Shown here: piece after piece, positions 4,716 to 18,615 of the stretch
Numbering within the stretch: the first letter of the stretch is position 1
Layout: each line of letters opens with the position of its first letter
DNA from: Candidatus Heimdallarchaeota archaeon B3_Heim
GTDB lineage: Archaea; Asgardarchaeota; Heimdallarchaeia; Hodarchaeales; Hodarchaeaceae
Assembly (NCBI GenBank): GCA_003144275.1
Contig: NJBF01000020.1
Span: 43,255 to 75,254, forward strand
Reading direction: 5' to 3'
Length of the DNA stretch: 32,000 bases
The notes under the pieces: generated by a model
Told to the model about the DNA's origin: nothing
Databases searched by the model: none
The model's input: only the letters and a program-made list of their open reading frames with translations
Translations under genes and position numbers: made by a program

Positions 4716-5453
4716 TTGAATGAAAAAGAATTTTTCCGATTAGTAGGAAACGAAATAAGACGTGATATCCTTCGATCGGTCGCTCAAGAGCCAAAATATC
4801 TGTTTCAACTTTCTAAAGAGCTCAAGAGATCTCAACAATCACTACAAAGGCACCTCCAGTGCTTGTTGGAAAATGGTTGGTTGTCTCAAGAATTAGTAGA
4901 GGGACCTCATGGTCCAGCTCGCAAGCTATATCAAATAGCTAAGAATCTATCGGTAAGAATTACGTTAAGTCAGCATTCGTTTGCTATAGACGTATTTGAC
5001 ATTCAAATCGGAAGAATTTCTGACCCCTTGGACGATTTCCAAACTCATTTGAATGAAATAGGTAAAGATCTTTCATTGACACTTTCTCAAGGAATTCAAA
5101 AAGATCATCAGAATTATGCTGTCCAAATTCGTACCCTTAATACAATTCTTGATAAACTAGGGTCAATAGAAAATTTCATTCTGAGCAAAAAGCTTACTGT
5201 CACAGGTCAATTAAATGAGACAATTTCGATGAAACTAGAAGGTGACGATCATCGAAAAGATCGTGAATTGGCGTATACAATTTTTAGTAGCTCTGCCCCA
5301 ATAAAAATAGATGTGATTCAAAAAGAAATAAAAACAAAGCGAACTGAGCTTCTAGCTTCCCTTAAACGACTGAATGAAAAGAATCTTTTACCCGAACGAG
5401 GAGTAGATTTAATGCAGAAGCTAGAAGTCACATTGAGTAGCCAAACGGAGTGA
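4716..5453 (+). CDS. ArsR-type wHTH regulator, Phr-like archaeal heat-shock repressor (COG1777-like)
   Basis: VGNEIRRDIL...LFQLSKELKRSQQSLQRHLQCLLENGWL...GPARKLYQI..NLSVRITL parallels the Pyrococcus Phr N-terminus as I recall it (LGNETRRRIL...ELSRELGVGQKAVLEHLRILEEAGLI...GRPRKYYMI..GLRLEILL); first gene of the grpE-dnaK-dnaJ operon; TTG start. Confidence 0.8.
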   Translation: MNEKEFFRLVGNEIRRDILRSVAQEPKYLFQLSKELKRSQQSLQRHLQCLLENGWLSQELVEGPHGPARKLYQIAKNLSVRITLSQHSFAIDVFDIQIGRISDPLDDFQTHLNEIGKDLSLTLSQGIQKDHQNYAVQIRTLNTILDKLGSIENFILSKKLTVTGQLNETISMKLEGDDHRKDRELAYTIFSSSAPIKIDVIQKEIKTKRTELLASLKRLNEKNLLPERGVDLMQKLEVTLSSQTE

Positions 5454-5456
5454 TAA

Positions 5457-6092
5457 ATGCCAATGAAAGAACATACTCCACAGAATACAAAAAATAATTC
5501 AAATTTCTATGACATTGATGAACAAATTAAAGAATCTGACTCAAAAAAAGTCAAGATACCAACGTACAGTAAATCCATGGATAGCAAATCATCTCAGCAA
5601 AGCAAACAAGGGGAGCTAGAAAGCCAAATTGAGAAGCTTAAAGAAGAGTTAGTACAAAAGGAGAAGACTAATCAAAAAGATAAAGAGCGTTTTCTTCGTG
5701 CATTAGCTGATTATGAAAATCTTGAGAAGCGAACAAAAGCAGAAAGATCAAGAATATTAAAAAATGCTAATGCTAATCTTCTGACGACATTTCTTGAACT
5801 AGCAGATACGTTAGAAAAAGCAAAATCAAGTTTTACTGATTCCTCGAATGCTAATACTGAATTAAAAGAGGGTTTTCTAGCAATTGAAAGACAGTTTTCA
5901 AGTATCTTGAACAATGCAGGAGTTGAAAGACTTGAATGTCTGGGGACAAAATTCGATCCAGCTTTCCATGAAGCTGTGTTCGTAAGAAAAGATCCAGGAG
6001 AGGGAGAAGACATAATTTTGGAAGAAGTTCAGGCTGGTTACACACTGAACACTACCTTACTACGACCTAGTAAAGTGATAATTGCAAAATAA
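5457..6092 (+). CDS. grpE: Nucleotide exchange factor GrpE
   Basis: RALADYENLEKR, FDPAFHEAV, QAGYTLNTTLLRPSKVII. Confidence 0.97.
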   Translation: MPMKEHTPQNTKNNSNFYDIDEQIKESDSKKVKIPTYSKSMDSKSSQQSKQGELESQIEKLKEELVQKEKTNQKDKERFLRALADYENLEKRTKAERSRILKNANANLLTTFLELADTLEKAKSSFTDSSNANTELKEGFLAIERQFSSILNNAGVERLECLGTKFDPAFHEAVFVRKDPGEGEDIILEEVQAGYTLNTTLLRPSKVIIAK

Positions 6093-6113
6093 TAATATTA
6101 AGGTGAACACAAG

Positions 6114-7946
6114 ATGCCTAGACCAATTGGTATAGATTTAGGAACAACTTTTTCTGCCATAGCCACAATGGAAGGTGGAAAAGCAAAGATTATTCCCAAT
6201 GCGGAAGGTCAGCGAATTACTCCCTCTGTAGTATCCATTTCGAAAGAGGGTGAACGAGTAGTTGGAATACAAGCTAAAAGACAAGCTGTTTCCAACCATG
6301 AGAGGACAGTTAGATCCATAAAAAGAGAGATGGGAACTAAGTATACAGTGACTATTGATAGAAAGGTCTATAAACCTCCTGAAATAAGTGCAATGATTCT
6401 ACAAAAACTAAAACGAGATGCTGAGGCTTATTTGGGTGAAACTATTACCCAAGCAGTAATTACCGTTCCAGCATATTTTTCTGATTCCCAACGTCAAGCT
6501 ACAAAGGATGCTGGTAAAATTGCGGGGTTAGAGGTTCTAAGAATTATTAATGAACCCACAAGTGCTTCTTTAGCTTATGGAATGGACAAAGAAGAAGAAT
6601 CGACAATTCTTGTTTTTGACTTGGGTGGTGGAACATTTGATGTTTCAATATTAGAATTATCCGAGGGTGTATTCGAGGTAAAAGCAACATCAGGTAATAA
6701 TAGACTTGGGGGAGACGATTTTGATCAACGAATTATTGATTGGATGATTGAAGAGTTTAAAAAACAAACTGGGTTGGATCTTTCGAAAGATCCAATGGCA
6801 TTACAACGATTGAGAGATGCAGCAGAACAAGCAAAAATTGAGTTATCACAAAAAACTTCCTCAGATATCAATTTACCATATGTTTATGCTGATAACACTG
6901 GACCTAAACATCTGAATCTTTCTCTTACAAGGTCAAAATTTGAAATTATGATCGCTGATCTCATTGAAAAAGCTATGGGTCCTACTCGACAAGCCTTAGC
7001 CGATGCAAAACTTAAGCCTTCCGAAATTAATAAGATTTTACTCGTTGGTGGTTCTACTCGTGTTCCTGCCGTACAATCAGCATTACGTAACTATTTCAAT
7101 AAAGAACTAACAAAAGAACTCAATCCTGATGAATGTGTAGCTCTGGGAGCAGCGATACAAGCCGCAATTATAACTGGTGAAGTAAAAGATGTTTTGTTGC
7201 TCGATGTTACTCCTTTGTCTTTAGGGATAGAAACTCTAGGTGGAGTATTTACCAGGTTAATTGAAAGAAACACTACTATTCCAACTCATAAGAGTCAAAT
7301 CTTCTCTACCGCAGCTGATAATCAACCATCAGTTGAAATTCACGTATTACAAGGAGAAAGGAAAATGGCCACAGGGAATATAACCCTAGGCAAATTCCAA
7401 TTGGTCGGAATACCTCCCGCTCCTAGAGGCGTTCCACAAATTGAGGTAAGCTTTGATATTGATGCCAATGGAATTGTAAATGTATCAGCAAAAGATCTTG
7501 GAACTGGAAATGAGCAGAAAATAACCATTAAGAGTGATAGTGGCCTTTCAGAAACAGATTTCAAGAGAATGGCTGAGGAAGCAGAAAAATACGAGGAAGA
7601 AGATAATAAAAGATTGGAAGAAGCTGAAGCACGAAATAAAGCAGACTCACTTGTCTATCAAGTTGAAAAGATGATTAAGGATTTAGGTGAACAAGTGGAT
7701 GCTACCACAAAAAGCAACGCAGAGAGTACGATTGAATCACTTAAATCATCTTTACAGAGCGGAAATATTCCAGATGTCATTAAAAAGAGTGAAGATCTAG
7801 AGAAAATTGCACATGAATTAGCACAGAAACTTTATGCTCAACAAGCTCCGCAAGGAGCACCAGGTGCAGGTTTTCAAGGGGCTCCATCGGGTCAAGATGA
7901 CTCCGAAGTTGTAGACGTTGATTATGAGATTGTCGATGAAGAGTAA
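6114..7946 (+). CDS. dnaK: Molecular chaperone DnaK (Hsp70)
   Basis: [61 protein letters not shown]; short form without the proteobacterial insert; SD AGGTGA 6101-6106. Confidence 0.99.
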
Positions 7947-7978
7947 TTGAAATCGTAAGAATTTATCAGGTGATATGA

Positions 7979-9127
7979 CTGAGTAAAAACAAAAAAGATT
8001 ACTATGAGGTTCTTGGTGTCCAAAGGGACGCAGATGTTAAAGATATCAAGAAAGCCTTTCGAAAGTTAGCTCGGAAGTATCATCCTGATATGAACCCTGA
8101 TGATCCAAGCGCAGAAGAGAAGTTTAAACAAGTAGCTGAAGCATTCGAAGTATTATCTGATAATGAAAAACGGCCTTTGTATGATCGATATGGTCATGAA
8201 GGCTTATCAGGCGCTTCATTCAGAGATTTTTCAGGCATGGGGCTAGATGATCTTTTTGGTGGGTTTGGTATATTTGAAAATATCTTCAATGCCTTTGGAG
8301 GCGGAACTCAAGCTAGGACTTCCCGTTCTCGTGCGAGACGCGGTCAAGATGTAAGGCTTAACATTGATCTCTCTTTCGATGAGGCAATGAAGGGAATAAA
8401 GAAGTCAATTAAAGTCCCTAACTGGGCACAATGTCCTGTATGCCATGGCAATAGAATTAAAAAAGGCGAATCACTCATTAAGTGTAGTACCTGTGGTGGA
8501 GTAGGAGAAGTGCGTCAGGTTCAGAGAACGGCCTTTGGACAGATGATAAATATTACCACTTGCCCAAAATGCCGTGGAGAAGGTGAGAAGTTGAAAAAAG
8601 GGACAGAATGTGAGACTTGCAACGGAGTTGGCAAAGTTAAGCAAACTAGAACTGTTGAAGCTCATGTCCCTGCTGGGGTTGATACAGGAATGCGTGTGGT
8701 AGTTCAAGGAGAGGGCAGACCTGGTGAGTTGGGAGGACCTTCTGGGGATTTATATTTGGTAGTAAACATATCCCCTCATCCTTTCTTCCAAAGAAATGGT
8801 GCGGAAATTCTTCTGGAATATCCGATTAGTTTTCTTGACGCCGTATTAGGGACAAAACTTACAATTCCTACAATTAACGGAGACGAGAAAGTTACAATCA
8901 AACCAGGTACTGAATCTGGGAAAATAATTACCCTTAGAAAAAAAGGCGCCCCTAATCCTAATAGGTCTGGTCGTGGCGATATGCACATCGGAATTACTGT
9001 AAAATTTCCTAGTAAATTAGAAAAAAGTGTAAAACAAACATTACAGAAACTTCAAGAAGAAGACGAGGCAAAATATGTATTTAGAAATAATCCTGGATTA
9101 GCTAAATACTTAGGTTCCCAAAAATAA
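7979..9127 (+). CDS. dnaJ: Molecular chaperone DnaJ (Hsp40); J-domain extends upstream of the called ORF to a CTG at 7979
   Basis: In frame with ATG 8090: CTG AGT AAA AAC AAA AAA GAT TAC TAT GAG GTT CTT GGT = (M)[12 protein letters not shown]...[15 protein letters not shown]; G/F region; four CxxCxG Zn repeats; C-terminal RGDMHI domain; in-frame TGA at 7976-7978. Confidence 0.95.
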
Positions 9128-9163
9128 TAGATTTTATGACATATGAGGATAGTATAGATTTTT

Positions 9164-10261
9164 CTATTCCTCTAAAGGAGTCAATTTTCGTAATTTAGAT
9201 AATTTTCGGGTTCTGAAAGATTCCCAGGGCGTATTCATTAAAATTTCCCAATTTAAGTAGCATGAACAAATTTCTGAGAAATTTTCTGGTAGCTTTTCTC
9301 TTTGGACAGCTTTTTCAATCAGCTTAAGTACAATTTTATCACATTTTCCACAATTGTGAGCTCCTCGTTCTTTACCTGCGGCTGTGGGGTCACAAATAAT
9401 TTTTATATTAGGAGCAATCTCATTAGCGATCTTAATCAGATGAAGTACAGTCCATAACCAAGGAGGTTGATATTCATCCTTTCTAAAAAGTTCGTAGATC
9501 AACGTCCCATTCTGAATATTACATGGATTTATTGAGATAACATCTGTTCCCATTTGTTTCGCATCGAAAACAGTCTTAATGGAATCTCTCAATGCTTCTT
9601 GTTCACTAAGAAACGGAGGTTTAATAAAAACGTAACTTTTAACTTCAACACCTATTGGTTGTAAATATTTTAGACTAGATTCGTAATCTTCTAGGGTTGT
9701 CCCCTTATTCCAGCAATCTAGTAATATTGCGTTGTTAGAGCTCTCTAAACCAATACCAATTTCTAATTTGATTTCTGAAAGACGTTTGAGAATTCCTTCA
9801 ATGGTTGTTTTCTCTTTTAAAATGAATTCTGGTCTACATTCGACAGATAATTTAATTATCTGCCCAGAACTTTTAATAAGATCTATAATGGTCTTTCTTA
9901 ATTCCTCTGGAACATCGTTCTTATCAAAAAAGCTCCCCGAATTGAAAATCTGTAACTCAAGTGGTTTATTATATTTAGTTTCAATTATTAATCTTCTTAA
10001 TTCATCTTCAATCTTTGTGACTGGGATTTGATTCTCTCTTGAGGAATCATTGACATATCCACAAACTGAGCATCCTCCATTGTCCGATAAAGCCCAACTA
10101 CATCCCTTGGATGGGATTACTATGGTCACGGTGATATAATCCTCTTTTTCTGACACACTACTCCATATTTTGGAATGAGAGGTATCTGACACCTGAGTAA
10201 GGTACTTGTGACGAATTTCTTGAATTCTGTCCGAAATAAGAGGATTGACTTGTTTATGCAT
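9164..10261 (-). CDS. raSEA: Archaeosine biosynthesis radical SAM protein RaSEA
   Basis: KGCSWALSDNGGCSVCGY extended cluster motif, FNSGSFFD, EIGIGLES, YVFIKPPFLSE, YQPPWLW, RGAHNCGKCD; overlaps arcS by 8 nt. Confidence 0.9.
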   Translation of the reverse strand: MHKQVNPLISDRIQEIRHKYLTQVSDTSHSKIWSSVSEKEDYITVTIVIPSKGCSWALSDNGGCSVCGYVNDSSRENQIPVTKIEDELRRLIIETKYNKPLELQIFNSGSFFDKNDVPEELRKTIIDLIKSSGQIIKLSVECRPEFILKEKTTIEGILKRLSEIKLEIGIGLESSNNAILLDCWNKGTTLEDYESSLKYLQPIGVEVKSYVFIKPPFLSEQEALRDSIKTVFDAKQMGTDVISINPCNIQNGTLIYELFRKDEYQPPWLWTVLHLIKIANEIAPNIKIICDPTAAGKERGAHNCGKCDKIVLKLIEKAVQREKLPENFSEICSCYLNWEILMNTPWESFRTRKLSKLRKLTPLEE

Positions 10262-12170
10262 TTTCTTTCACCTTCTGACGAATTTTTACACCTAATCCCC
10301 GAGGCATGTCGACTAATAGCTTCCCTGGAAGATAAGCGACTCCTGTAGCCATGAGTTCTTCATTTTCATTAACTACTATCACTTCATCATTTATCCTGAT
10401 TTCATGATCAGCCTGTCTAATGGCATTGGCAAATATTGTAGTTCCCCTTATACTTTCCCCATCAAATCTCACTATATTTTTCGATGTGCCAATCATACGT
10501 CTTGCAGCTTCTAGTGATAACGTTAAAAAGCCAGTAGAGGACCGAAAAGTCAATAGATGCTTACCAGCAAGTTGAATTCGGATACCGAGTTCTTTATATC
10601 CTTGAAGTCTTACATTTTCAGGGATTAGTAACTTTCCTACTCCAAATCCAAATTGATAATCGGCGACTACTCGTAAAAAATCTAGGAGCTTATTTCTCTT
10701 TGGAATTGTTTTTATTATTAGTTTTTCAGTGAGGAGATGTCTAAACTGATATAAACTTTCTTTTGAGGTTAGAGCTGGGACATCATCATCTATAATGTGA
10801 ACAACTCTGTCTAAATTCTTGCAAACATCAACAAGCACTCTTTTTTCCGTTCCTTTTACATATCCCAAAAGTTGAATAGTAGTTGGGCAGTTTTTCAGAA
10901 AATTTTCAAGATCCTCAGCAAGTTGTTCTCGTTCTAGACTACTCCAATCTCCAGTAACTGGTATATCGTAATGCGCAGCGGGGTATGTATATTCTAACTC
11001 TCTGGGGACAATTCCTAGCGGACTTGTGAGAATAATCTCTGCAAGAGAGTGGCGTCGACTTTTCAGAGTTCTTCGAATAGCACTTTGGAAAGCACGATGT
11101 GATTTCGATTGAGAGTAGGGTTTCCTTGCGGAACATGGAAGGAAAACAATACCTTGTATATGAGAAGCTAGTCGATATCTATCTCTTACCCTTTCTCTAA
11201 AGCGTTTAACCTCTGGTCTAGAAAAATCAGTTTCATCTGTACAGTAAAGTGATTTTGCCCCATAAATTGTTGTTCCTTGATCTAGCGGTATTTGCTTGTC
11301 AATCATTCGGAGCAATGTCTTCTGGGGGGGATATGAATTTGCGTATATTCGGACTAAATCACGTAATTTACCTGATTTAAGAGCAGATTTTATACGATTT
11401 ATTACGAGTTTATAATCCTCCGCATTATTATCCATTTCCAATATATTACCTCCGTTTGTAAGTGTAGAGAGGAAAGTAAAATCAAATAAATCAATACCCA
11501 GATAGGTCAGGATGGGAAAAAATGAAGAGGGTACTCCAGGTGCGTATAGCATAACATCAGGCGTAATAATTTCTTTTATTGACGATAAATATTGCAATAG
11601 AAATTTCGGATGGTTCAGTAATGACGAAATATCTCCTAAACTAATGATTCCAACTTTAAAAGGGATGAGTTCTTTTAAAGATTCAGCTAGATTAGATCTA
11701 AATGGGATATTAACCATAAACTTGGACTGGAGAATACTAGTTATTGAGATTAAACGTTTAATGGTTGAAATATATTCATTAATGTGATCTAAATAGATTT
11801 CAGGTAAATCCCAAGGAATTAAATGGAAAAACTCGTCTCGAGATACCAATGATTGGAAGATCTCGGGAAATAAATCTTCTATTCTAGTCAAATTAGACAA
11901 AGATTTCCCCTGCATCTGTAAAGATGAATATAGAATACATGTGGGAAATGATGATAATTCTGGTTGTTGATGCTGTGATTGGAAAAAAGTCTCAAGATTT
12001 GATTTGCTTAGAATTTTTTTTAATTTATATGAGTCTTGATTTTCAATTGGAGATAAGTCATCTTCTCTTCTCATCTGAAGATTAAGAAACGTAGGTGTTT
12101 CATAAGGTCGTCCCAATAGAACATTCCCAAGTCTCCCCAATCCCTCAAATTTTCGTATTTCAAATGACAT
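10254..12170 (-). CDS. arcS: Archaeosine synthase subunit ArcS (degenerate TGT-like + DUF5591 + PUA domain)
   Basis: FLPCSARKPYSQSKSH, LTSPLGIVPRELEYTYPAAHYDIPVTGDW, C-terminal PUA (ADHEIRINDEVIV...GLGVKIR). Confidence 0.92.
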   Translation of the reverse strand: MSFEIRKFEGLGRLGNVLLGRPYETPTFLNLQMRREDDLSPIENQDSYKLKKILSKSNLETFFQSQHQQPELSSFPTCILYSSLQMQGKSLSNLTRIEDLFPEIFQSLVSRDEFFHLIPWDLPEIYLDHINEYISTIKRLISITSILQSKFMVNIPFRSNLAESLKELIPFKVGIISLGDISSLLNHPKFLLQYLSSIKEIITPDVMLYAPGVPSSFFPILTYLGIDLFDFTFLSTLTNGGNILEMDNNAEDYKLVINRIKSALKSGKLRDLVRIYANSYPPQKTLLRMIDKQIPLDQGTTIYGAKSLYCTDETDFSRPEVKRFRERVRDRYRLASHIQGIVFLPCSARKPYSQSKSHRAFQSAIRRTLKSRRHSLAEIILTSPLGIVPRELEYTYPAAHYDIPVTGDWSSLEREQLAEDLENFLKNCPTTIQLLGYVKGTEKRVLVDVCKNLDRVVHIIDDDVPALTSKESLYQFRHLLTEKLIIKTIPKRNKLLDFLRVVADYQFGFGVGKLLIPENVRLQGYKELGIRIQLAGKHLLTFRSSTGFLTLSLEAARRMIGTSKNIVRFDGESIRGTTIFANAIRQADHEIRINDEVIVVNENEELMATGVAYLPGKLLVDMPRGLGVKIRQKVKENA

Positions 12171-12526
12171 GCCTTTCTACTCCTTAGTTTACCCAGAATA
12201 TTCTTGAAATTTCCTCTAACTCGAAAGATATTAGCATAATCGTCAAAGATGAACAGATAGGATTCCAGTAATAATGTTGATTATTGAAAATACGAAACAG
12301 ATGTCAAAGATTTCTGGTGTGTTATTTTATGGAAATTTCATTCTCCACTTATTTTAGATCGAAATATAGAATATCATCTAGATAATATCCGTATTGATAG
12401 AGGACATGAGATATGAATATTTGATGAAAATTAGATCCCTTTAACCCAAGGATCATTGTCATTATTTGAAAATCACACAGATTGAAAGTGAATTTTACCT
12501 TGAGTTCGTCTATTAGTAATACAACG

Positions 12527-13909
12527 ATGATGGAGTATTTTCGTCCAAGAGGAAAAATCGTTTGCCTTGGAGATAATATGAAATCTGAACTCGAACTGAT
12601 AAAGAACATTCTAGACATAAACAATGATAAGAGAGTACCAGTTCTTCTGCTCAGTTCTTCCACTGATCTTAGTGAATATGCAGATCAAGTAGTTATCTTT
12701 GATTCGGATTCAACAATTGCTCAAGTTCATAATCTTTTGAACTCCTCATTTTTATTTTTTTTGTTTAATTCTTCTGAACATGGAATACTGAGAATTTTAG
12801 GTACAATCCTAGCCTCAATTGAATACAGAGGCACGATCCCTATTTTTATCGATACTGGTAGAGGTCTCCCTCCAGATCAAAAGAAAAATCTAGGTGAATG
12901 TTATTTTCACTTCGATTTATTAGAGGATATCAATCAAAAGAGTTTTTCAATATTTCTAGAAAACATAATATCTGTGTTATCACCTGTTTCTGGGCTTGGG
13001 ATATCATTTTCAGATTTAATTCAAATTTTTGGAAAATCTAAAAGTCTTTTTTATGGAATTTCACAATCAACCCTCTTGGAACAAGTTCTAGAAGATTTAG
13101 TTGATCAAATTGGGGGAAAGCTTGTCCAAACATTGCCTGAAGAACTTGAAAATCTTGAAGCTATCTTTATCTCTGTTATTTCAGGAAAATCACTCAGTTT
13201 GCAAATTATGAATAAGATAACCTCAAAATTTGCTTCGACATTTGGTATGGAATTCAATATCCATTTTTCTAATTCTGTAGAATCTGATCTCCAGGGTTAC
13301 AAAACGATGGCCATACTTACAGATCTTCACCCAATAAATGAAATTTTTCCAGTTGCGAATCCCTTTCTAATGTTAGATTTTGATAATGAGACTGAAGACA
13401 CTTCTGATGAATTATCCTTTTCAAATTCCAAAGAAAAACCATTGAAAGAAAATGAGGAGGATATGAGATTCCATATTTTGGGTAAAATATTTTCTGAATC
13501 TGAGGTTTACATATTTGATGATGGAGGGCTTCCTCTATTTGCTAGTCACCGTCCAGCTGGGCAAGAAGTTTGTCTATATACTGGATTATTCTCTGCAATT
13601 CAATCTATGAGTTCAGATTTAATTGGTCATTCTCCAGACCATCTTACTGCGGGGGATAAAGAATGTGTATTTGTGTCACAGAAAGGTCCAAATCAAGTAC
13701 AACTAAGAGGAGTTGCCATTTGTCAAGGCGGACAGGAAGAAACTGCTAGAAATGACCTCAAAGTTTCTATGGATTTAGTTCATCGTGTAATGCTACAGGG
13801 AGAACCAGAATACGCTATAAATGATAAAATCCAAGGCATTCTTGTTAAAAGTTTCCAGAAGGGAGAACTATCTAATGGCTTTGCCTTAGCAAAATATCAA
13901 GCAAGCTAA
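12527..13909 (+). CDS. Hypothetical: degenerate FtsZ/tubulin-like domain + acidic linker + longin/Roadblock-like C-terminal domain (likely start ATG 12527; ORF open from 12482)
   Basis: ISVLSPVSGLGISFSDLIQIFGKSKSLFYG resembles the FtsZ T7 region; AIFISVISGKSLSL...IHFSNSVESDL..KTMAILTDL resembles the FtsZ C-terminal domain; EVYIFDDGGLPLF...LYTGLFSAIQSMSSDL is longin-like. Confidence 0.6.
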   Translation: MMEYFRPRGKIVCLGDNMKSELELIKNILDINNDKRVPVLLLSSSTDLSEYADQVVIFDSDSTIAQVHNLLNSSFLFFLFNSSEHGILRILGTILASIEYRGTIPIFIDTGRGLPPDQKKNLGECYFHFDLLEDINQKSFSIFLENIISVLSPVSGLGISFSDLIQIFGKSKSLFYGISQSTLLEQVLEDLVDQIGGKLVQTLPEELENLEAIFISVISGKSLSLQIMNKITSKFASTFGMEFNIHFSNSVESDLQGYKTMAILTDLHPINEIFPVANPFLMLDFDNETEDTSDELSFSNSKEKPLKENEEDMRFHILGKIFSESEVYIFDDGGLPLFASHRPAGQEVCLYTGLFSAIQSMSSDLIGHSPDHLTAGDKECVFVSQKGPNQVQLRGVAICQGGQEETARNDLKVSMDLVHRVMLQGEPEYAINDKIQGILVKSFQKGELSNGFALAKYQAS

Positions 13910-13923
13910 CTTATTTCTACAGA

Positions 13924-14559
13924 TTATTTAGAAATAGGATTAATAGCTTCATTTGTTTGGTAACGTTCATAAACTTTTTCAACATAACCAAACTCTTCAA
14001 TTAGTTCATGAATTCTTGTCGATTCAATATAGATTTCAGAGGTCCATAAAATCAAGTACGCAGTAATCATAGGCAATTGAGGGGTAACTGATTCCTGTAT
14101 TTCAAATAGGATCTGTTTACGTAGAGCGAGCTCTGTTTCATACATATCAATTATTTCTCGAATGGTATTTTCAGCTTGATCTATAATCTCTAAATCATGA
14201 GGCCATTCATTATTATCTTTTACTGCTCGATTTTTCGCTGGTTGAAGAATATCACAACGAAAGCTCTGTTCTATTTTTCTCATCTCGCGAATTACATCTT
14301 TAAAATGAGTTAAATAAGCATTCAATTCGGTGATATGCCTATTGATAGATTCTGCGAGATTATAAGCTAGTCTGCCCTGAACGTCATCAAACTTAGTCTT
14401 TATTACTTCGGAAAAGACATCTGATCTTTGAGTCAGGTTAAATCGTGATAAGATATTGAGTACCATGTTTACAGTTCGTAACGACTGGCCTTGAACGGTG
14501 GTCCACTTTTTTTGAGAGATTTGTAACCTCTTTTTAAAGACCCGAATGCTCTGACTCAT
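13924..14559 (-). CDS. Hypothetical all-helical protein, CINP/C1orf109-like
   Basis: MYETELALRKQIL...AYLILWTSEIYIES resembles human CINP C-terminus as I recall it (MYRKELLLKRTVA...SYLSMWLHQPYVES); KFDDVQGRL resembles C1orf109 AFPDLKERL. Confidence 0.6.
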   Translation of the reverse strand: MSQSIRVFKKRLQISQKKWTTVQGQSLRTVNMVLNILSRFNLTQRSDVFSEVIKTKFDDVQGRLAYNLAESINRHITELNAYLTHFKDVIREMRKIEQSFRCDILQPAKNRAVKDNNEWPHDLEIIDQAENTIREIIDMYETELALRKQILFEIQESVTPQLPMITAYLILWTSEIYIESTRIHELIEEFGYVEKVYERYQTNEAINPISK

Positions 14560-14671: not shown

Positions 14672-14861
14672 GATTGAGGCACAAAATAATTCCGTTCTGA
14701 AAGACTTACCCAAATGGGACTGATAAGAATAATCAAGAAGAATTATTCGAAACAACCGTTGGAGCTGTTCTTCCTGATTCATCGACGCGTGCCTGCTCTG
14801 ATGCAGGTCTTACCACCTCTCCACAGACATTTAAGGTCTCCGCAGAACTCTCGGCGACCGG
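14672..14861 (-). ncRNA. Putative omega-RNA (reRNA): scaffold ~14861-14692 plus ~20-nt guide 14691-14672
   Basis: GC-rich hairpins at the tnpB 3' end (CCTGC-N6-GCAGG 14792-14807; CCG...CGG 14840-14854; GAACAGC...GTTGTTT on minus). TnpB omega-RNAs are established to derive from the right end with the guide from flanking DNA. Confidence 0.6.
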
Positions 14862-16034
14862 AAAGAGTAGGAACTGATAGATAGTATAATAATTAGCAAC
14901 ATTACGGGCAGCGTTCTGATCACGATCTAATGCCAACCCGCATAACGGGCAATGAAAAATCCGATCAGCTAACGTCAGATCACGACGGTAATAAAGGCAA
15001 TTCGAGCATAATTTCGAGGAAGGAAACCAGCGATCGATCTCAATCACCTTAGAGCCATATAAGGGCGCCTTATATGCGAGGAAACGCTGAAACAGACCAT
15101 GTGAAAGATCGGCCCAATATTTACTCAGCTTCTTATTTTGCATTAATCCTTTGACATGTAAATCCTCGGTAACTATCACGCTGTGGTTTTTAGCCAGATA
15201 AGTTGAGGTCTGATGCAAAAAATTATGCCTTTGGTTGGTGATTCGACGATAGAATCGCGCTAAGCGGAGGGCAGACTTCCGTTTATTATTTGAGACGTTC
15301 TGTTTCCGAGAATGAACTTTTGATAATCGATCCTGTTTTCGAGCTTGACGGAGGAGGAATTTGGGACGAGTGATAGGTATTCCCGAAGATAACGCTGTAA
15401 AGACGGATAAGCCTTTATCCAGGGCAATAATTGGGCCATCGTTTGGGTTACAATCTGGTTGTACCTCTTTTACCGTAAGAGCCACATACCAGCGATCCGC
15501 AGTCCGAGAAACCGTGACACTCAGTATCCGTGCTGATACAGGTAAATTTGGCCTTTCTTTTAACCGTAATTTACCTAAGCGAGGTAATTGCACCTGTTTT
15601 ACCTTTTGAAAAAGATGAATCACTCCAGTCAATCGAAAGCTGTCCTTACACTTGCCTTTTTTCTTGAAAATGGGTAAGCCGATATAACGGGTGGTTTGCT
15701 TCCGTTTTATTTGTTGATGATTGGTGAAGAAATTCTGATAGCCACGATCTAAGTCGCGGAGTGCCTCTTGCGGGACACATTTCGAAACCTCATACATCCA
15801 AGGAAAATCTGTTAGTTTCAAGCGATTTAATTCTTTATGCTGTTTCATAGCATCGGTATAGCGAGCAGCACCTGCTCGCGTTCGATAACGCGATTTCCGA
15901 TTGGCTAATCCCCAGTTCCAGGCAAATCGTGATATACCTGCATATTTGGTCAGTAGCGTCCGTTCTTTGTTATTCACTGTTAATTCGTACTTGTATCCTC
16001 GTGTACGGAGCATCCCTGACCATCCTTACTTAGA
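14692..16034 (-). mobile_element. Non-autonomous IS607-type (TnpB-only) element; right end at 14692, left end uncertain
   Basis: tnpB ORF with higher GC than host; minus-strand 3' end TTTGGGTAAGTCTTTCAGAACGG resembles IS607-family right ends ending in GG; no tnpA ORF upstream; left-end candidates follow TGGG (16038-16035) or TAGG (~16089). Confidence 0.65.
14733..16013 (-). CDS. tnpB: RNA-guided endonuclease TnpB (IS200/IS605/IS607 superfamily)
   Basis: N-terminal GYKYEL...AGISRFAWNWGL, RuvC-I IALDKGL, RuvC-II VTEDLHV, Zn finger CSNC...CPLC, RuvC-III DRDQNAARN; C-tail AESSAETLNVCGE typical of overlap with omega-RNA. Confidence 0.96.
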   Translation of the reverse strand: MLRTRGYKYELTVNNKERTLLTKYAGISRFAWNWGLANRKSRYRTRAGAARYTDAMKQHKELNRLKLTDFPWMYEVSKCVPQEALRDLDRGYQNFFTNHQQIKRKQTTRYIGLPIFKKKGKCKDSFRLTGVIHLFQKVKQVQLPRLGKLRLKERPNLPVSARILSVTVSRTADRWYVALTVKEVQPDCNPNDGPIIALDKGLSVFTALSSGIPITRPKFLLRQARKQDRLSKVHSRKQNVSNNKRKSALRLARFYRRITNQRHNFLHQTSTYLAKNHSVIVTEDLHVKGLMQNKKLSKYWADLSHGLFQRFLAYKAPLYGSKVIEIDRWFPSSKLCSNCLYYRRDLTLADRIFHCPLCGLALDRDQNAARNVANYYTIYQFLLFPVAESSAETLNVCGEVVRPASEQARVDESGRTAPTVVSNNSS

Positions 16035-16458: not shown

Positions 16459-18615
16459 GTGAGATGTTTGGCTAAAACGTACCAGGTCTTATTATGGACA
16501 CTACTACTGGCATTTTCTTACAGCGTTGATAATTCAGCTAATATTACTGACAGTATAGCCGCTTTCTCTGTTACTTCATACTCTACCAGCGCTGATTTTA
16601 CCAATTTTACCATTATTCAATCAGGAATTTCTCAGGAAGGCGTTTTTTCAAGTGATAATGATAATAGCACTCATTACTGGAAACTCGAGAATGTAAATCA
16701 AAGTCAAGTTGTATATCTTTCTCTCTCTCCTCACAATGGTAATGATAAAGATGATTTGAATGTGGAATTATTTCGCCCGTCAGGTGAAAGCTATTCACAA
16801 ATCCTTGAACCTACAGTGGGTTCTACTGATTATCTTGCTTCGTGGTTAGCAAACGAATTTGGTGATTGGATTATCCAGGTTAACGATACTAGTCAATCAA
16901 ATTTTACCTACACGATGTTAGTGGTCATTCCGACGTCTGCATACAGTGAAAATTCTGCAATATTAGTTAATGAGACCCCAACTATAGCAAATTTCACTAT
17001 TAGCCACGAAAGCCATTATTGGCAAGTATTATTAGAAGAAAATCAAGTTGGAACAATAAATCTGAAGGAAATCACGCCAACTATCCTACGAGTGTCTAAA
17101 ATTACAATTTATCGTGCACAAAATCCTCTAAACCCGATTCTTCTACCAAGTGACATCTTTCAAAGCAAATATAATTACTCTTGGAATGCACCTGCTACTG
17201 ATACGTATTTTGTGGAAATTACTCATAAAGCAGAGAAAAGCTATCCAATCGGGCAGTATAATGTTTCTTTCACTGCTGAAACAGCTGGATACGATTTTAA
17301 AACTGCACTAGAGATACCATATAATCAAACTTTCACTGTCAACGTAGATCAGGGATTTATTCCTAGAAAACGCTATTATTTTACGTTTAAAGTCAACGTA
17401 AGCCGAACATTAGTGGACATCCGTGTATTTGAATTGAATACAACAACTTCTACAATATTGGATTATGCAATTGTCGAGATCTTCGATGAAGGTCGCCAAT
17501 CGCCAAAACTAGCCATACGTGAGGAGGAAGAAGATAGGGACGGTCAAATTAATATTTCAGAGAAGCTTGATACTGGAATTTATTATTTAAGAGTTACGCC
17601 AGAATCCAATGCAGTTGGTACTTTTCAAATATTCTTGGAATATCGTTTACCACAGCCTTTTGTTTGGAATGTTCTTGCGATCCTTCTAACAATTAGTACA
17701 GTTATAGTATTTCCAGTCTATCTAATTTATCTTGATTCAAAAGGGAAATGGTACCGTGTAAGTCAATGGACTGTTTCTAGTTCTATCCAAAATGCCTACA
17801 AAATCTTTAGAAACAGTTTTAGAGGAATTTATAATATCAAGGAAGTACCAAGTGACTCTATCTTAATTCACATTGCAAGTATTCCATTTCGAACATATGC
17901 TATTCTAAATTTTGTTGAATCTTCTGAAAATGAAACATTGATTTTTTCAAAACGTATCAACCGTAAATATGAGTGGGGGATCTATGTTCTTGTAGGATTA
18001 TCTGTATTTGATGCACTAAATATTGGGGCCTATCTTTTATTCTCAGTACAATTTCTCCCACTATATTTTGCCAATCTGACTTCTTTGATTTTAATTTTAG
18101 CTATTCCAACAATTTCACTATTAATAATTGTATTATTCACCAATGGATCTTCATATATGACTTACAGCCAAGTTTATAATCGAATCTCGTATATAATACA
18201 AAATTTTGAGGATTCAGAAGAAAATACAATGTCCTCCTTAAGTATGGATCCAATCCAAGCTGCTAAAAGTGTAAACTATGTGAGAGTCCTTTGGAATCAA
18301 GCAAGACATGCCTTTAAAAATCAAAATTACGAACTCTTCGTCATCAAAGCCGATGCAGCAGTGAAAAATCTCCTATCTACAAGATACTTACAAATATGCC
18401 CCATAAATTCCCAAACAAAAGCTGATTTTCAAACCCAAGTGGTAGAATTAAGGAAACGTGGATTTGACTTACCTAATGAAAAAAAAATAGCACATTTCAG
18501 GAACCTTCGGAATAGGATAGTTCATTCATCAGTTACCTTGGGTGAAAAGGAATCGGTTGATTGTTTCGCTTACTATTCGACGTTCATCACTCGATTGGGT
18601 CTTCGACCCACATAA
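16459..18615 (+). CDS. Predicted membrane receptor: signal peptide, 3 PPC-like beta-sandwich ectodomains, 3 TM helices, cytoplasmic HEPN domain
   Basis: Hydrophobic N-terminus; three repeats of the H/YYW/F...DLNVELF...G.Y/W.I.V pattern; TM ~aa402-425, ~507-530, ~537-560; C-terminal FRNLRNRIVHS (R684-x4-H689) within HEPN-like helices. Confidence 0.72.
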   Translation: MRCLAKTYQVLLWTLLLAFSYSVDNSANITDSIAAFSVTSYSTSADFTNFTIIQSGISQEGVFSSDNDNSTHYWKLENVNQSQVVYLSLSPHNGNDKDDLNVELFRPSGESYSQILEPTVGSTDYLASWLANEFGDWIIQVNDTSQSNFTYTMLVVIPTSAYSENSAILVNETPTIANFTISHESHYWQVLLEENQVGTINLKEITPTILRVSKITIYRAQNPLNPILLPSDIFQSKYNYSWNAPATDTYFVEITHKAEKSYPIGQYNVSFTAETAGYDFKTALEIPYNQTFTVNVDQGFIPRKRYYFTFKVNVSRTLVDIRVFELNTTTSTILDYAIVEIFDEGRQSPKLAIREEEEDRDGQINISEKLDTGIYYLRVTPESNAVGTFQIFLEYRLPQPFVWNVLAILLTISTVIVFPVYLIYLDSKGKWYRVSQWTVSSSIQNAYKIFRNSFRGIYNIKEVPSDSILIHIASIPFRTYAILNFVESSENETLIFSKRINRKYEWGIYVLVGLSVFDALNIGAYLLFSVQFLPLYFANLTSLILILAIPTISLLIIVLFTNGSSYMTYSQVYNRISYIIQNFEDSEENTMSSLSMDPIQAAKSVNYVRVLWNQARHAFKNQNYELFVIKADAAVKNLLSTRYLQICPINSQTKADFQTQVVELRKRGFDLPNEKKIAHFRNLRNRIVHSSVTLGEKESVDCFAYYSTFITRLGLRPT

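Follow-up and report, generated by a model that had tools for sequence, protein, structure and literature searches.

The target gene and its product

The window analysed here is a whole stretch of 32,000 nucleotides from Candidatus Heimdallarchaeota archaeon B3_Heim (contig NJBF01000020.1, positions 43,255 to 75,254), and its subject is one gene, the target gene, whose product carries a degenerate FtsZ module followed by an acidic linker and a longin/Roadblock-type domain. That the target is a core single-copy gene of one Hodarchaeales family encoding a two-module protein is, as far as the architecture goes, close to certain.

The gene lies in an open frame that spans 12482-13909 on the plus strand as one uninterrupted open reading frame (ORF) in the window's ORF list. 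A sequence-only reading of this DNA had begun the protein at ATG 12527, and residue numbers given below count from that codon (460 aa, P0001); all of the strings it quoted occur in the translation of 12527-13906. The start, however, is likely to be different. TTG 12500, nine codons upstream, falls on the Leu of a conserved "ALSS" in 12/12 orthologous loci, and NCBI-called orthologues begin "MSS..." at this codon. Because the TTG is kept at every one of these loci, several of which have no ATG in the open frame upstream of EYFRPRGK, the true start is probably TTG 12500 and the coding sequence 12500-13909. The features of the gene, with column counts for the T1, T4 and T7 loops taken over 38 aligned orthologues and model confidence expressed as the predicted local distance difference test (pLDDT), are as follows.

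12500..13909, plus strand: target gene, probable coding sequence; 469 aa plus stop, TTG start conserved
12542..12976, plus strand: degenerate GTPase-type (Rossmann-like) subdomain, residues 6-150, S1-S6; pLDDT mostly 77-92, VIA-align to 2vaw
12569..12580, plus strand: T1 loop remnant, G15-D-N-M replacing GGGGxN; G15 in 37/38, then D/E/N/K, then D/N
12767..12784, plus strand: T4 "tubulin signature" remnant, N81-S-S-E-H-G replacing GGGTG(T/S)G; from the 38-orthologue columns
12980..13033, plus strand: T7 loop and helix H8 remnant, residues 152-169, SPVSGLGISFSDLIQIFG; hidden Markov model (HMM) and hhalign alignment to FtsZ NLDFADV
13034..13327, plus strand: FtsZ C-terminal subdomain, residues 170-267, S7-H9-S8-H10-S9-S10; Pfam FtsZ_C, PDB profile matches, pLDDT 87-96
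13355..13450, plus strand: acidic disordered linker, residues 277-308; pLDDT ~26, 9 D/E vs 3 K/R in 32 residues
13454..13861, plus strand: longin/Roadblock-superfamily domain, residues 310-445; model m4ac9cedabcbb, Foldseek and VIA-align; the most conserved part
13862..13906, plus strand: C-terminal tail ending in a conserved -AS; A459 and S460 invariant in 38 orthologues

An FtsZ fold in the N-terminal module

The N-terminal region had been assigned an FtsZ/tubulin fold by the sequence-only reading, and structural comparison bears this out. The AlphaFold2 model of the target protein has a pLDDT of 75.7 overall and of ~77-96 across most of residues 9-270. When its N-terminal part was searched with Foldseek, the top 50 PDB matches shown were all FtsZ, at E ~3e-12. 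VIA-align, which is independent of Foldseek, aligned FtsZ 2vaw over 251 residues (model residues 6-267; Z 19.3, root-mean-square deviation 3.1), with CetZ (16.7-15.4), then tubulins, BtubA and Asgard tubulins (15.0-14.2), and then TubZ and PhuZ behind it. The top 16 rows of this comparison all belong to the tubulin/FtsZ superfamily, and the best unrelated fold reached Z 11.4.

The elements of the model follow one another as in FtsZ (S1, H1, S2, S3, H3, S4, H4, S5, H5, S6, H7, T7, H8, S7, H9, S8, H10, S9, S10), so that the two-subdomain tubulin/FtsZ fold is present with its Rossmann-like N-subdomain, core helix H7, T7 loop and C-terminal subdomain, while ~60 residues of the ordinary FtsZ core are absent. 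As modelled, the N-terminal module is a complete but slimmed FtsZ fold. Strings that had earlier been paired with FtsZ elements by eye fall on the expected elements: KIVCLG is S1 (9-14), FLFFLF is S4 (75-80), IPIFID is S5 (104-109), and AIFISVIS, NIHFSNSV and KTMAILTD are S8, S9 and S10, with SPVSGLGISFSDL forming the T7 loop and the start of H8 (residues 152-164).

Sequence comparison recovers part of this module. Pfam FtsZ_C (PF12327) aligns to residues 206-267 at E 0.04-0.09 (13.5-14.5 bits vs a cut-off of 27), and Pfam Tubulin (PF00091) does not match the target protein; of the fold and Pfam matches that had been expected, the FtsZ structural match stood, PF00091 failed and FtsZ_C stayed under its cut-off. 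Searching PDB with the single target sequence gave no matches. A profile of the 38 orthologues gave FtsZ for its first 25 PDB matches (best E 0.027) in the same T7-to-C-subdomain register, and hhalign of the family against an FtsZ-core alignment reached a probability of 18% and E 0.0013 over T7 and the C-subdomain only, finding no sequence-level alignment to FtsZ for the N-subdomain (residues 6-150).

Loss of the GTP-binding loops

Sequence alignment to FtsZ fails for the N-subdomain, and the T1 and T4 equivalences are therefore read from the order of secondary-structure elements in the model; that of T7/H8 comes directly from the HMM and hhalign alignments. The glycine-rich T1 loop GGGGxN that should follow S1 is absent from the aligned orthologues, and the glycine signature GGGTG(T/S)G of T4 is carried by 0/38, in agreement with the earlier claim that the GTP signature is lost. 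Its place is taken by the pattern F-N-S-S-E-x-G, with N81 in 35/38, S82 in 38/38, S83 in 36/38 and E/D84 in 38/38. At the NxDxxD positions of T7, G158 occurs in 35/38 and S/T160 in 38/38, and the synergy loop NxDxx(D/E) is not found. F161, F168 and G169 are each present in 38/38, and D53-Q54, N81-S82-S83, P105 and D109 are invariant or nearly so.

Since the T1 and T4 glycine loops and two of the three T7 residues are replaced, the target protein is not expected to bind GTP as FtsZ does or to activate hydrolysis in the subunit next to it, and we infer the loss of GTP binding from these motifs. The sequence-only reading had also pointed to a retained T7 Asp as a means of stimulating hydrolysis in FtsZ or tubulin filaments. 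This residue turned out not to be a family feature: position 163 is Asp in 23/38 only, with Asn in 12, Ser in 2 and His in 1. With the other T7 residues being Gly and Ser/Thr, stimulation of hydrolysis in the neighbour subunit is therefore unlikely.

One alternative use for this pocket would be cryptic nucleotide binding, the protein being an unusual active superfamily member that holds GTP or another nucleotide through its conserved N-S-S-E and D-Q/D-T-G loops. At the C-terminal ends of S3, S4 and S5 the loop residues are in fact conserved near-absolutely, but the superfamily's glycine-rich phosphate-binding motifs are absent in 38/38 orthologues, Pfam Tubulin (PF00091) finds nothing to match and the T7 catalytic residues are gone. 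Such a binder is very improbable.

A second alternative dispenses with the nucleotide altogether and has the protein form static filaments or rings that, without GTP turnover, display longin domains as docking sites. In its favour, the whole two-subdomain FtsZ fold is under purifying selection, and both of its former interface faces are conserved. FtsZ-family polymerisation, however, normally requires a nucleotide bound at the interface, whereas here both phosphate loops carry acidic residues (E/D84; D/E16) and upper-face helices are missing. It is decidedly improbable that the target protein works in this way.

The linker, the longin/Roadblock domain and the tail

An acidic linker had been proposed after the FtsZ-like part, and one is present at residues 277-308. 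It is poorly conserved, with a mean pairwise identity of 0.17.

The longin/Roadblock fold proposed for the C-terminal region was likewise recovered. Folded alone with a 24-row alignment (m4ac9cedabcbb; pLDDT 76.7, predicted template modelling score 0.71), the domain runs helix, two strands, helix, three strands, two helices (H2-17, E21-26, E32-35, H42-61, E68-71, E74-82, E88-96, H100-119, H124-140). The strands of this alpha-beta sandwich come in the order expected of the longin/Roadblock superfamily, and the domain combines a Roadblock-type leading helix with longin-type trailing helices. Foldseek returned 7 matches at E<=1e-3, all longin or Roadblock, which include Mon1-Ccz1 (the best, E 3e-4), the dynein Roadblock light chain and TRAPP Bet5. 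In the wide VIA-align search, 18/18 rows at Z>=8 (Z 9.7 to 8.0) were longin or Roadblock, and the VIA-align scores were 9.7 for BLOC-3, 9.5-9.2 for Mon1-Ccz1, 9.3 for CPLANE Fuzzy, 9.2 for LAMTOR, 9.1 for the VAMP7 longin, 9.0 for AP sigma, 8.9 for TRAPP and 7.8 for MglB. Longin matches cover model residues 19-154 and Roadblock matches 10-120, with Z values within 1 of each other that do not separate the two subclasses.

By structure the domain scores highest against the first longin domains of HPS1-HPS4, Mon1-Ccz1 and Fuzzy (Z 9.3-9.7), and matches in the ESM Atlas lead to MON1/FUZ longin clusters. In shape, then, the modelled module is closest to the first longin of the Rab-GEF subunits (guanine nucleotide exchange factors, GEFs) Mon1, Fuzzy and HPS1. 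By sequence, the window's domain has no match among the Pfam longin/Roadblock models, and no family domain rises above cut-off. Fuz_longin_1 (PF19036) matches 2/24 family domains (best E 0.002, 18.9 bits vs a cut-off of 26.1, from one distant family member), and Intu_longin_1 matches 1/24 at E 0.2.

A profile search for standalone copies of this longin subtype gave only fragments of the same family and two marginal matches. Related domains with the motifs D-x-G-G-hydrophobic-P-L and (S/T)-G-L-x-S-A end tetratricopeptide-repeat (TPR) proteins in other Heimdallarchaeia families. One locus of family f3 (L054) has three adjacent minus-strand genes, at 5176-7200, 7233-9404 and 9379-10968, that encode long TPR-like helical-repeat proteins, each ending in a domain of the target's longin-like type.

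Distribution and selection

Database searching gave 68 clusters (48-92% identity), every one from metagenome-assembled genomes of Hodarchaeales/Heimdallarchaeia and labelled "hypothetical protein". With the full-length profile, 20/20 genomes of the window's family and the window's own gave one match each, and 0/278 other Asgard genomes gave any. Queries with the C-terminal domain raise the family count to 21/21 plus its own, so that the gene is single-copy in 22/22. A sister Hodarchaeales family carries more degenerate forms. Public sequencing runs that contain the target DNA are marine-sediment and cold-seep metagenomes, at shares of <=0.30, with no RNA run listed among them.

Comparison with close orthologues gives a ratio of nonsynonymous to synonymous substitution rates (dN/dS) of 0.06-0.17 in the FtsZ-like part and 0.02-0.03 in the longin domain. 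The two FtsZ subdomains have mean pairwise identities of 0.55 and 0.50, and the longin domain one of 0.76. Purifying selection is thus strong on both modules and strongest on the longin domain. The suggestion that the gene is a decaying pseudogene or a mis-called ORF draws only on the lack of annotation, every database copy being a "hypothetical protein". Against it stand an intact single-copy ORF in 22/22 family genomes, dN/dS values of 0.05-0.18 and a confident fold prediction. Conservation and selection rule the suggestion out, and its likelihood is practically nil.

GTPase-intact relatives and descent

An exhaustive representative search for relatives gave 11 matches, among them one in which the same arrangement is built on a GTPase-intact FtsZ. 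This protein, P0076 (572 aa), is a genuine FtsZ that keeps GGGGNN, GGGTGTG and NLDYSD (Pfam Tubulin 3.9e-40, FtsZ_C 1.5e-19) and with the same C-terminal domain as the target. Five more such fusions (P0080-P0084) come from Hodarchaeales and bear the NCBI label "cell division protein FtsZ", e.g., MFX0113186.1 and MHA2499386.1. These live FtsZ-longin proteins share with the target the FtsZ fold, a long linker, a longin-type domain, the -AS end and, by NCBI naming, the same order. They differ in keeping the GTPase motifs and passing the Pfam Tubulin and FtsZ_C cut-offs, neither of which the target does, in being ~110 residues longer, in a longin domain only 31-32% identical to the target's, and in having a Rab-like GTPase gene in front of their own.

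When the target family was compared with P0076 by hhalign, the two aligned over 280 columns (probability 98.3%, E 1.9e-14), collinear through T7, C-subdomain, linker and longin domain to the C-terminus. A second, independently placed degenerate form, P0078 (515 aa), aligns likewise (probability 97.5%). In the sister family, genome G286 has a 495-aa positional orthologue of the target whose N-terminal part is unrecognisable and which also keeps the -AS end.

A tree built without long outgroups places canonical Hodarchaeales FtsZ and the FtsZ part of the live fusions as sisters (support 95/95). One conceivable role of the degenerate form is as a replacement for FtsZ2. On this point, each genome of the window's family has one strong FtsZ and 1-2 CetZ-like genes, and those of family f7 have two strong FtsZ; an approximately unbiased test did not reject a grouping of the live fusion with the f7 "b" paralogue (p 0.118) and rejected one with the "a" paralogue (p 0.010). 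The C-terminal domain of the live form found no match in the genome contigs searched, the assemblies that carry the live form lying outside this set. The live proteins are likely the ancestor type of the target, and it is quite probable that the target descends from a working FtsZ that already had a longin domain. The simplest reading is a single fusion, after which some lineages lost the GTPase.

The Rab-like GTPase and the cytoskeletal genes of the genome

Three contigs with a live fusion show the same gene order: TFIIB (minus strand), Rab-like GTPase (plus), FtsZ-longin (plus) and EamA (plus). The GTPase genes concerned, and their counterpart in the window's genome, are these.

L039:6620-7186, L040:7029-7601 and L041:1969-2523, plus strand: Rab-like GTPase genes directly upstream of live fusions, in 3/3 contigs seen
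G000:C70:9884-10450: orthologue of this GTPase in the window's genome, 66% identical, single-copy

The orthologue is single-copy in 19/21 family genomes. In 18 of these 19 its identity is 84-97%, the last giving a partial match at 80%, and in the sister family it is ~65% identical. In the window's genome it lies near genes for a leucine-rich-repeat protein and a Roadblock protein, and nothing there connects it to the target gene. A complex prediction with two longin copies, this GTPase, GTP and Mg scored 0.12 vs a mark of 0.32, a result of no weight either way on binding.

The window's genome encodes one canonical FtsZ (G000:C57), one CetZ/tubulin-like protein, 35 small GTPases and a divergent SepF-like candidate, and the canonical FtsZ and the CetZ/tubulin-like gene are potential filament partners for the target. 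The latter (G000:C96:90618-91100; L002:640-2019, minus strand) encodes a 459-aa tubulin/CetZ-like protein with GIGECGSN and GGGTGCG (Pfam Tubulin 63.8 bits), of a kind that occurs once or twice per genome of the family. The single strong FtsZ of the Heimdallarchaeia family f3 (L062, L070, L073) reads GLGKGTG where GGGTGTG is expected.

Pfam SepF falls short of its cut-off in each of the 24 Hodarchaeales genomes and likewise in family f4, and passes in families f3 and f7. A 109-aa SepF-like candidate in the window's own genome (G000:C88:84074-84355; L106:1462-1791) matches the full SepF profile at E 0.0045, and SepF is probably present but very divergent in this lineage. The idea that SepF is missing and the target is a new FtsZ anchor was rejected on account of this candidate.

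The neighbourhood of the target gene

The target gene stands outside any operon, between a divergent and a convergent neighbour.

10254-12170, minus strand: ArcS-like gene, divergent
13924-14559, minus strand: C1orf109-like gene, convergent; 211 aa

A 20-kb region (dnaK operon, radical SAM, ArcS, target, C1orf109-like, large membrane protein) keeps its gene order in ten family genomes as well as in P0070, a distant member (34% identity), and the sister-family genome G286 retains ArcS, target and membrane protein. This conservation shows stability rather than a functional link.

C1orf109-like proteins are a eukaryotic family of ribosome-biogenesis factors. The product of 13924-14559 matches Pfam PF15011 at E 1.2e-10 (42 bits vs a cut-off of 27), and its gene is the convergent neighbour of the target in 10/10 family loci compared and on the P0070 contig. 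Further along, 16459-18615 (plus strand) encodes a 718-aa multi-pass membrane protein with no Pfam match, whose gene remains adjacent to the target across the family and in the P0070 lineage, and in G286 too, where it is inverted. Between the C1orf109-like and membrane-protein genes lies a TnpB/IS605 OrfB gene (14733-16013, minus strand; Pfam Cas12f1-like_TNB, OrfB_IS605 and a helix-turn-helix), which is missing from the same place in 10/10 related loci and has a GC content of 0.41 vs 0.33-0.37 around it. The window's dnaJ ORF (8090-9127, plus strand) gives 345 aa from its first ATG vs 382-403 aa in ten orthologues, and seems to lack a callable start for the N-terminal ~40 residues.

A possible adaptor between FtsZ filaments and small GTPases

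In an FtsZ filament, the lower face of one subunit contacts the nucleotide face of the next. The target protein could act on this contact as an adaptor or regulator, a pseudo-GTPase derived from FtsZ rather than a motor, a proposal for which belief and doubt are about evenly balanced. The degenerate FtsZ module would dock on a real FtsZ-family subunit or filament end through its FtsZ-like lower face, made up of T7/H8 and the C-subdomain, the only part still FtsZ-like by sequence. Once docked, the module, whose upper face is rebuilt, could not itself be extended. The capping or co-polymerisation with FtsZ put forward in the sequence-only reading is conjectural. The longin domain would recruit or gate this docking activity through a partner, most likely a Ras-superfamily GTPase such as the Rab-like GTPase encoded upstream of the live fusions. 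A small GTPase is the best candidate because longin/Roadblock platforms do this (Mon1-Ccz1, MglB, Ragulator) and because a GTPase gene lies beside the live form.

A more specific version would make the target a small-GTPase switch on the Hodarchaeales FtsZ/CetZ cytoskeleton, in which the Rab-like GTPase binds the longin platform and the degenerate FtsZ caps, nucleates or anchors filaments at a chosen membrane site. This version is improbable as it stands. If true, it would be an archaeal forerunner of the eukaryotic logic by which Rab/Arf GTPases and longin adaptors direct cytoskeleton-membrane coupling, with the degenerate subunit in a gamma-tubulin-like or ARC3-like role.

Several observations weigh against the adaptor proposal. 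Loops of the upper, nucleotide face are also highly conserved (D53-Q54, N81-S82-S83, D109), so that docking by the lower face alone does not explain them, and the pocket could bind another ligand. The N-subdomain has lost helices relative to FtsZ, 251 of ~315 residues aligning, and the canonical longitudinal contacts may be gone as a result. Near the target gene in this lineage there is no ftsZ, sepF or GTPase gene, and the synteny of live fusion and GTPase is seen in three contigs that are related to one another and may be due to common ancestry alone. The loss of GTP binding is deduced from motifs, and partner binding is a prediction.

Another way to account for the protein is as a GTPase regulator, whether a GEF, a GTPase-activating protein (GAP) or a platform, that works on a small GTPase through its longin domain alone. 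The FtsZ module would then have given up contact with FtsZ-family filaments and would be a rigid scaffold or hold some other small ligand in its conserved former nucleotide crevice. Constraint is by far the highest on the longin domain (the identity of 0.76 and dN/dS of 0.02-0.03 given above), domains of the same type sit on unrelated N-terminal modules (TPR arrays, Arf-like GTPases) in other Heimdallarchaeia, residues of the crevice are conserved though the glycine loops are gone, and the target has no cytoskeletal gene nearby. This account has to contend with the fact that T7/H8 and the C-subdomain, which form the FtsZ polymer interface, remain most FtsZ-like by sequence, and that the ancestor type is a working FtsZ with the same longin domain. 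Moreover, solved longin GEFs and GAPs act as dimers or heterodimers, but no partner longin gene is adjacent to the target. Regulation by the longin domain alone is on the whole unlikely, though it has to be taken seriously.

Known systems and meaning

A useful precedent for the adaptor design comes from plants, in the chloroplast-division inhibitor ARC3, whose FtsZ-like domain has no working GTPase and, by binding chloroplast FtsZ, holds it in check. The target resembles ARC3 in joining an FtsZ-derived domain, a middle region and a C-terminal protein-interaction domain. The differences are that ARC3 arose independently, from the cyanobacterial FtsZ of plants, that it ends in MORN repeats where the target has a longin domain, and that its function has been shown experimentally, whereas the target is known from sequence and models. 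ARC3 directly inhibits Z-ring assembly and is gated and recruited through its C-terminal domain (PMC12232670). The parallel would be an analogy of design, not family membership.

The two modules can also be set beside their own superfamilies. Canonical archaeal FtsZ, CetZ and the Asgard tubulins have the same two-subdomain fold, helix H7 and T7 loop as the target, but the target has neither the GTP signature nor a Pfam Tubulin match, and its N-subdomain is shortened. The C-terminal peptide of ordinary FtsZ is absent as well, whereas the FtsZ of the window's own genome ends ...KKKFLGLF. Residues 310-445 share fold and topology with the first longin of Mon1, Fuzzy and HPS1 (PF19036) and with the wider superfamily (VAMP7, Sec22, LAMTOR, MglB). 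They depart from it in a sequence that falls under all Pfam cut-offs and in an extra N-terminal helix as in Roadblock, and the target has a single longin domain where the tri-longin Rab-GEF subunits have three. A paper on Asgard longin and Roadblock proteins lists fusions of these modules to small GTPases and TRAPPC3 only, and such fusions are read as evidence of functional coupling (Tran et al. 2024, PMC10933270). No FtsZ fusion is listed there, and the partner in the target is instead a member of the tubulin/FtsZ superfamily, catalytically dead by its motifs.

Full-text literature searches found no description of the FtsZ-longin architecture, as the sequence-only reading had supposed, and no paper describing the live FtsZ-longin proteins, which are already in public databases, annotated simply as FtsZ. 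What is new here is the architecture; both folds and the pseudo-GTPase idea were already known. A survey of the FtsZ/tubulin family gathered its members by Pfam PF00091 (PMC9871819), and surveys of this kind overlook the target family because PF00091 does not match its protein.

In eukaryotes, longin/Roadblock platforms regulate small GTPases, and non-polymerising family members and adaptors steer tubulin-family polymers. The Hodarchaeales have been proposed as the closest archaeal relatives of eukaryotes (Eme et al. 2023, as cited in PMC12583498). The fusion suggests a link between the archaeal cytoskeleton and small-GTPase signalling, and a core, constrained gene in which an FtsZ pseudo-GTPase and a longin domain form one protein points to two systems that this lineage may have linked already. 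The target also has a natural comparator, the GTPase-intact FtsZ-longin protein, and a candidate partner GTPase. Should nothing bind FtsZ, the protein would still offer a clear example of a cytoskeletal GTPase that became a pseudoenzyme scaffold.

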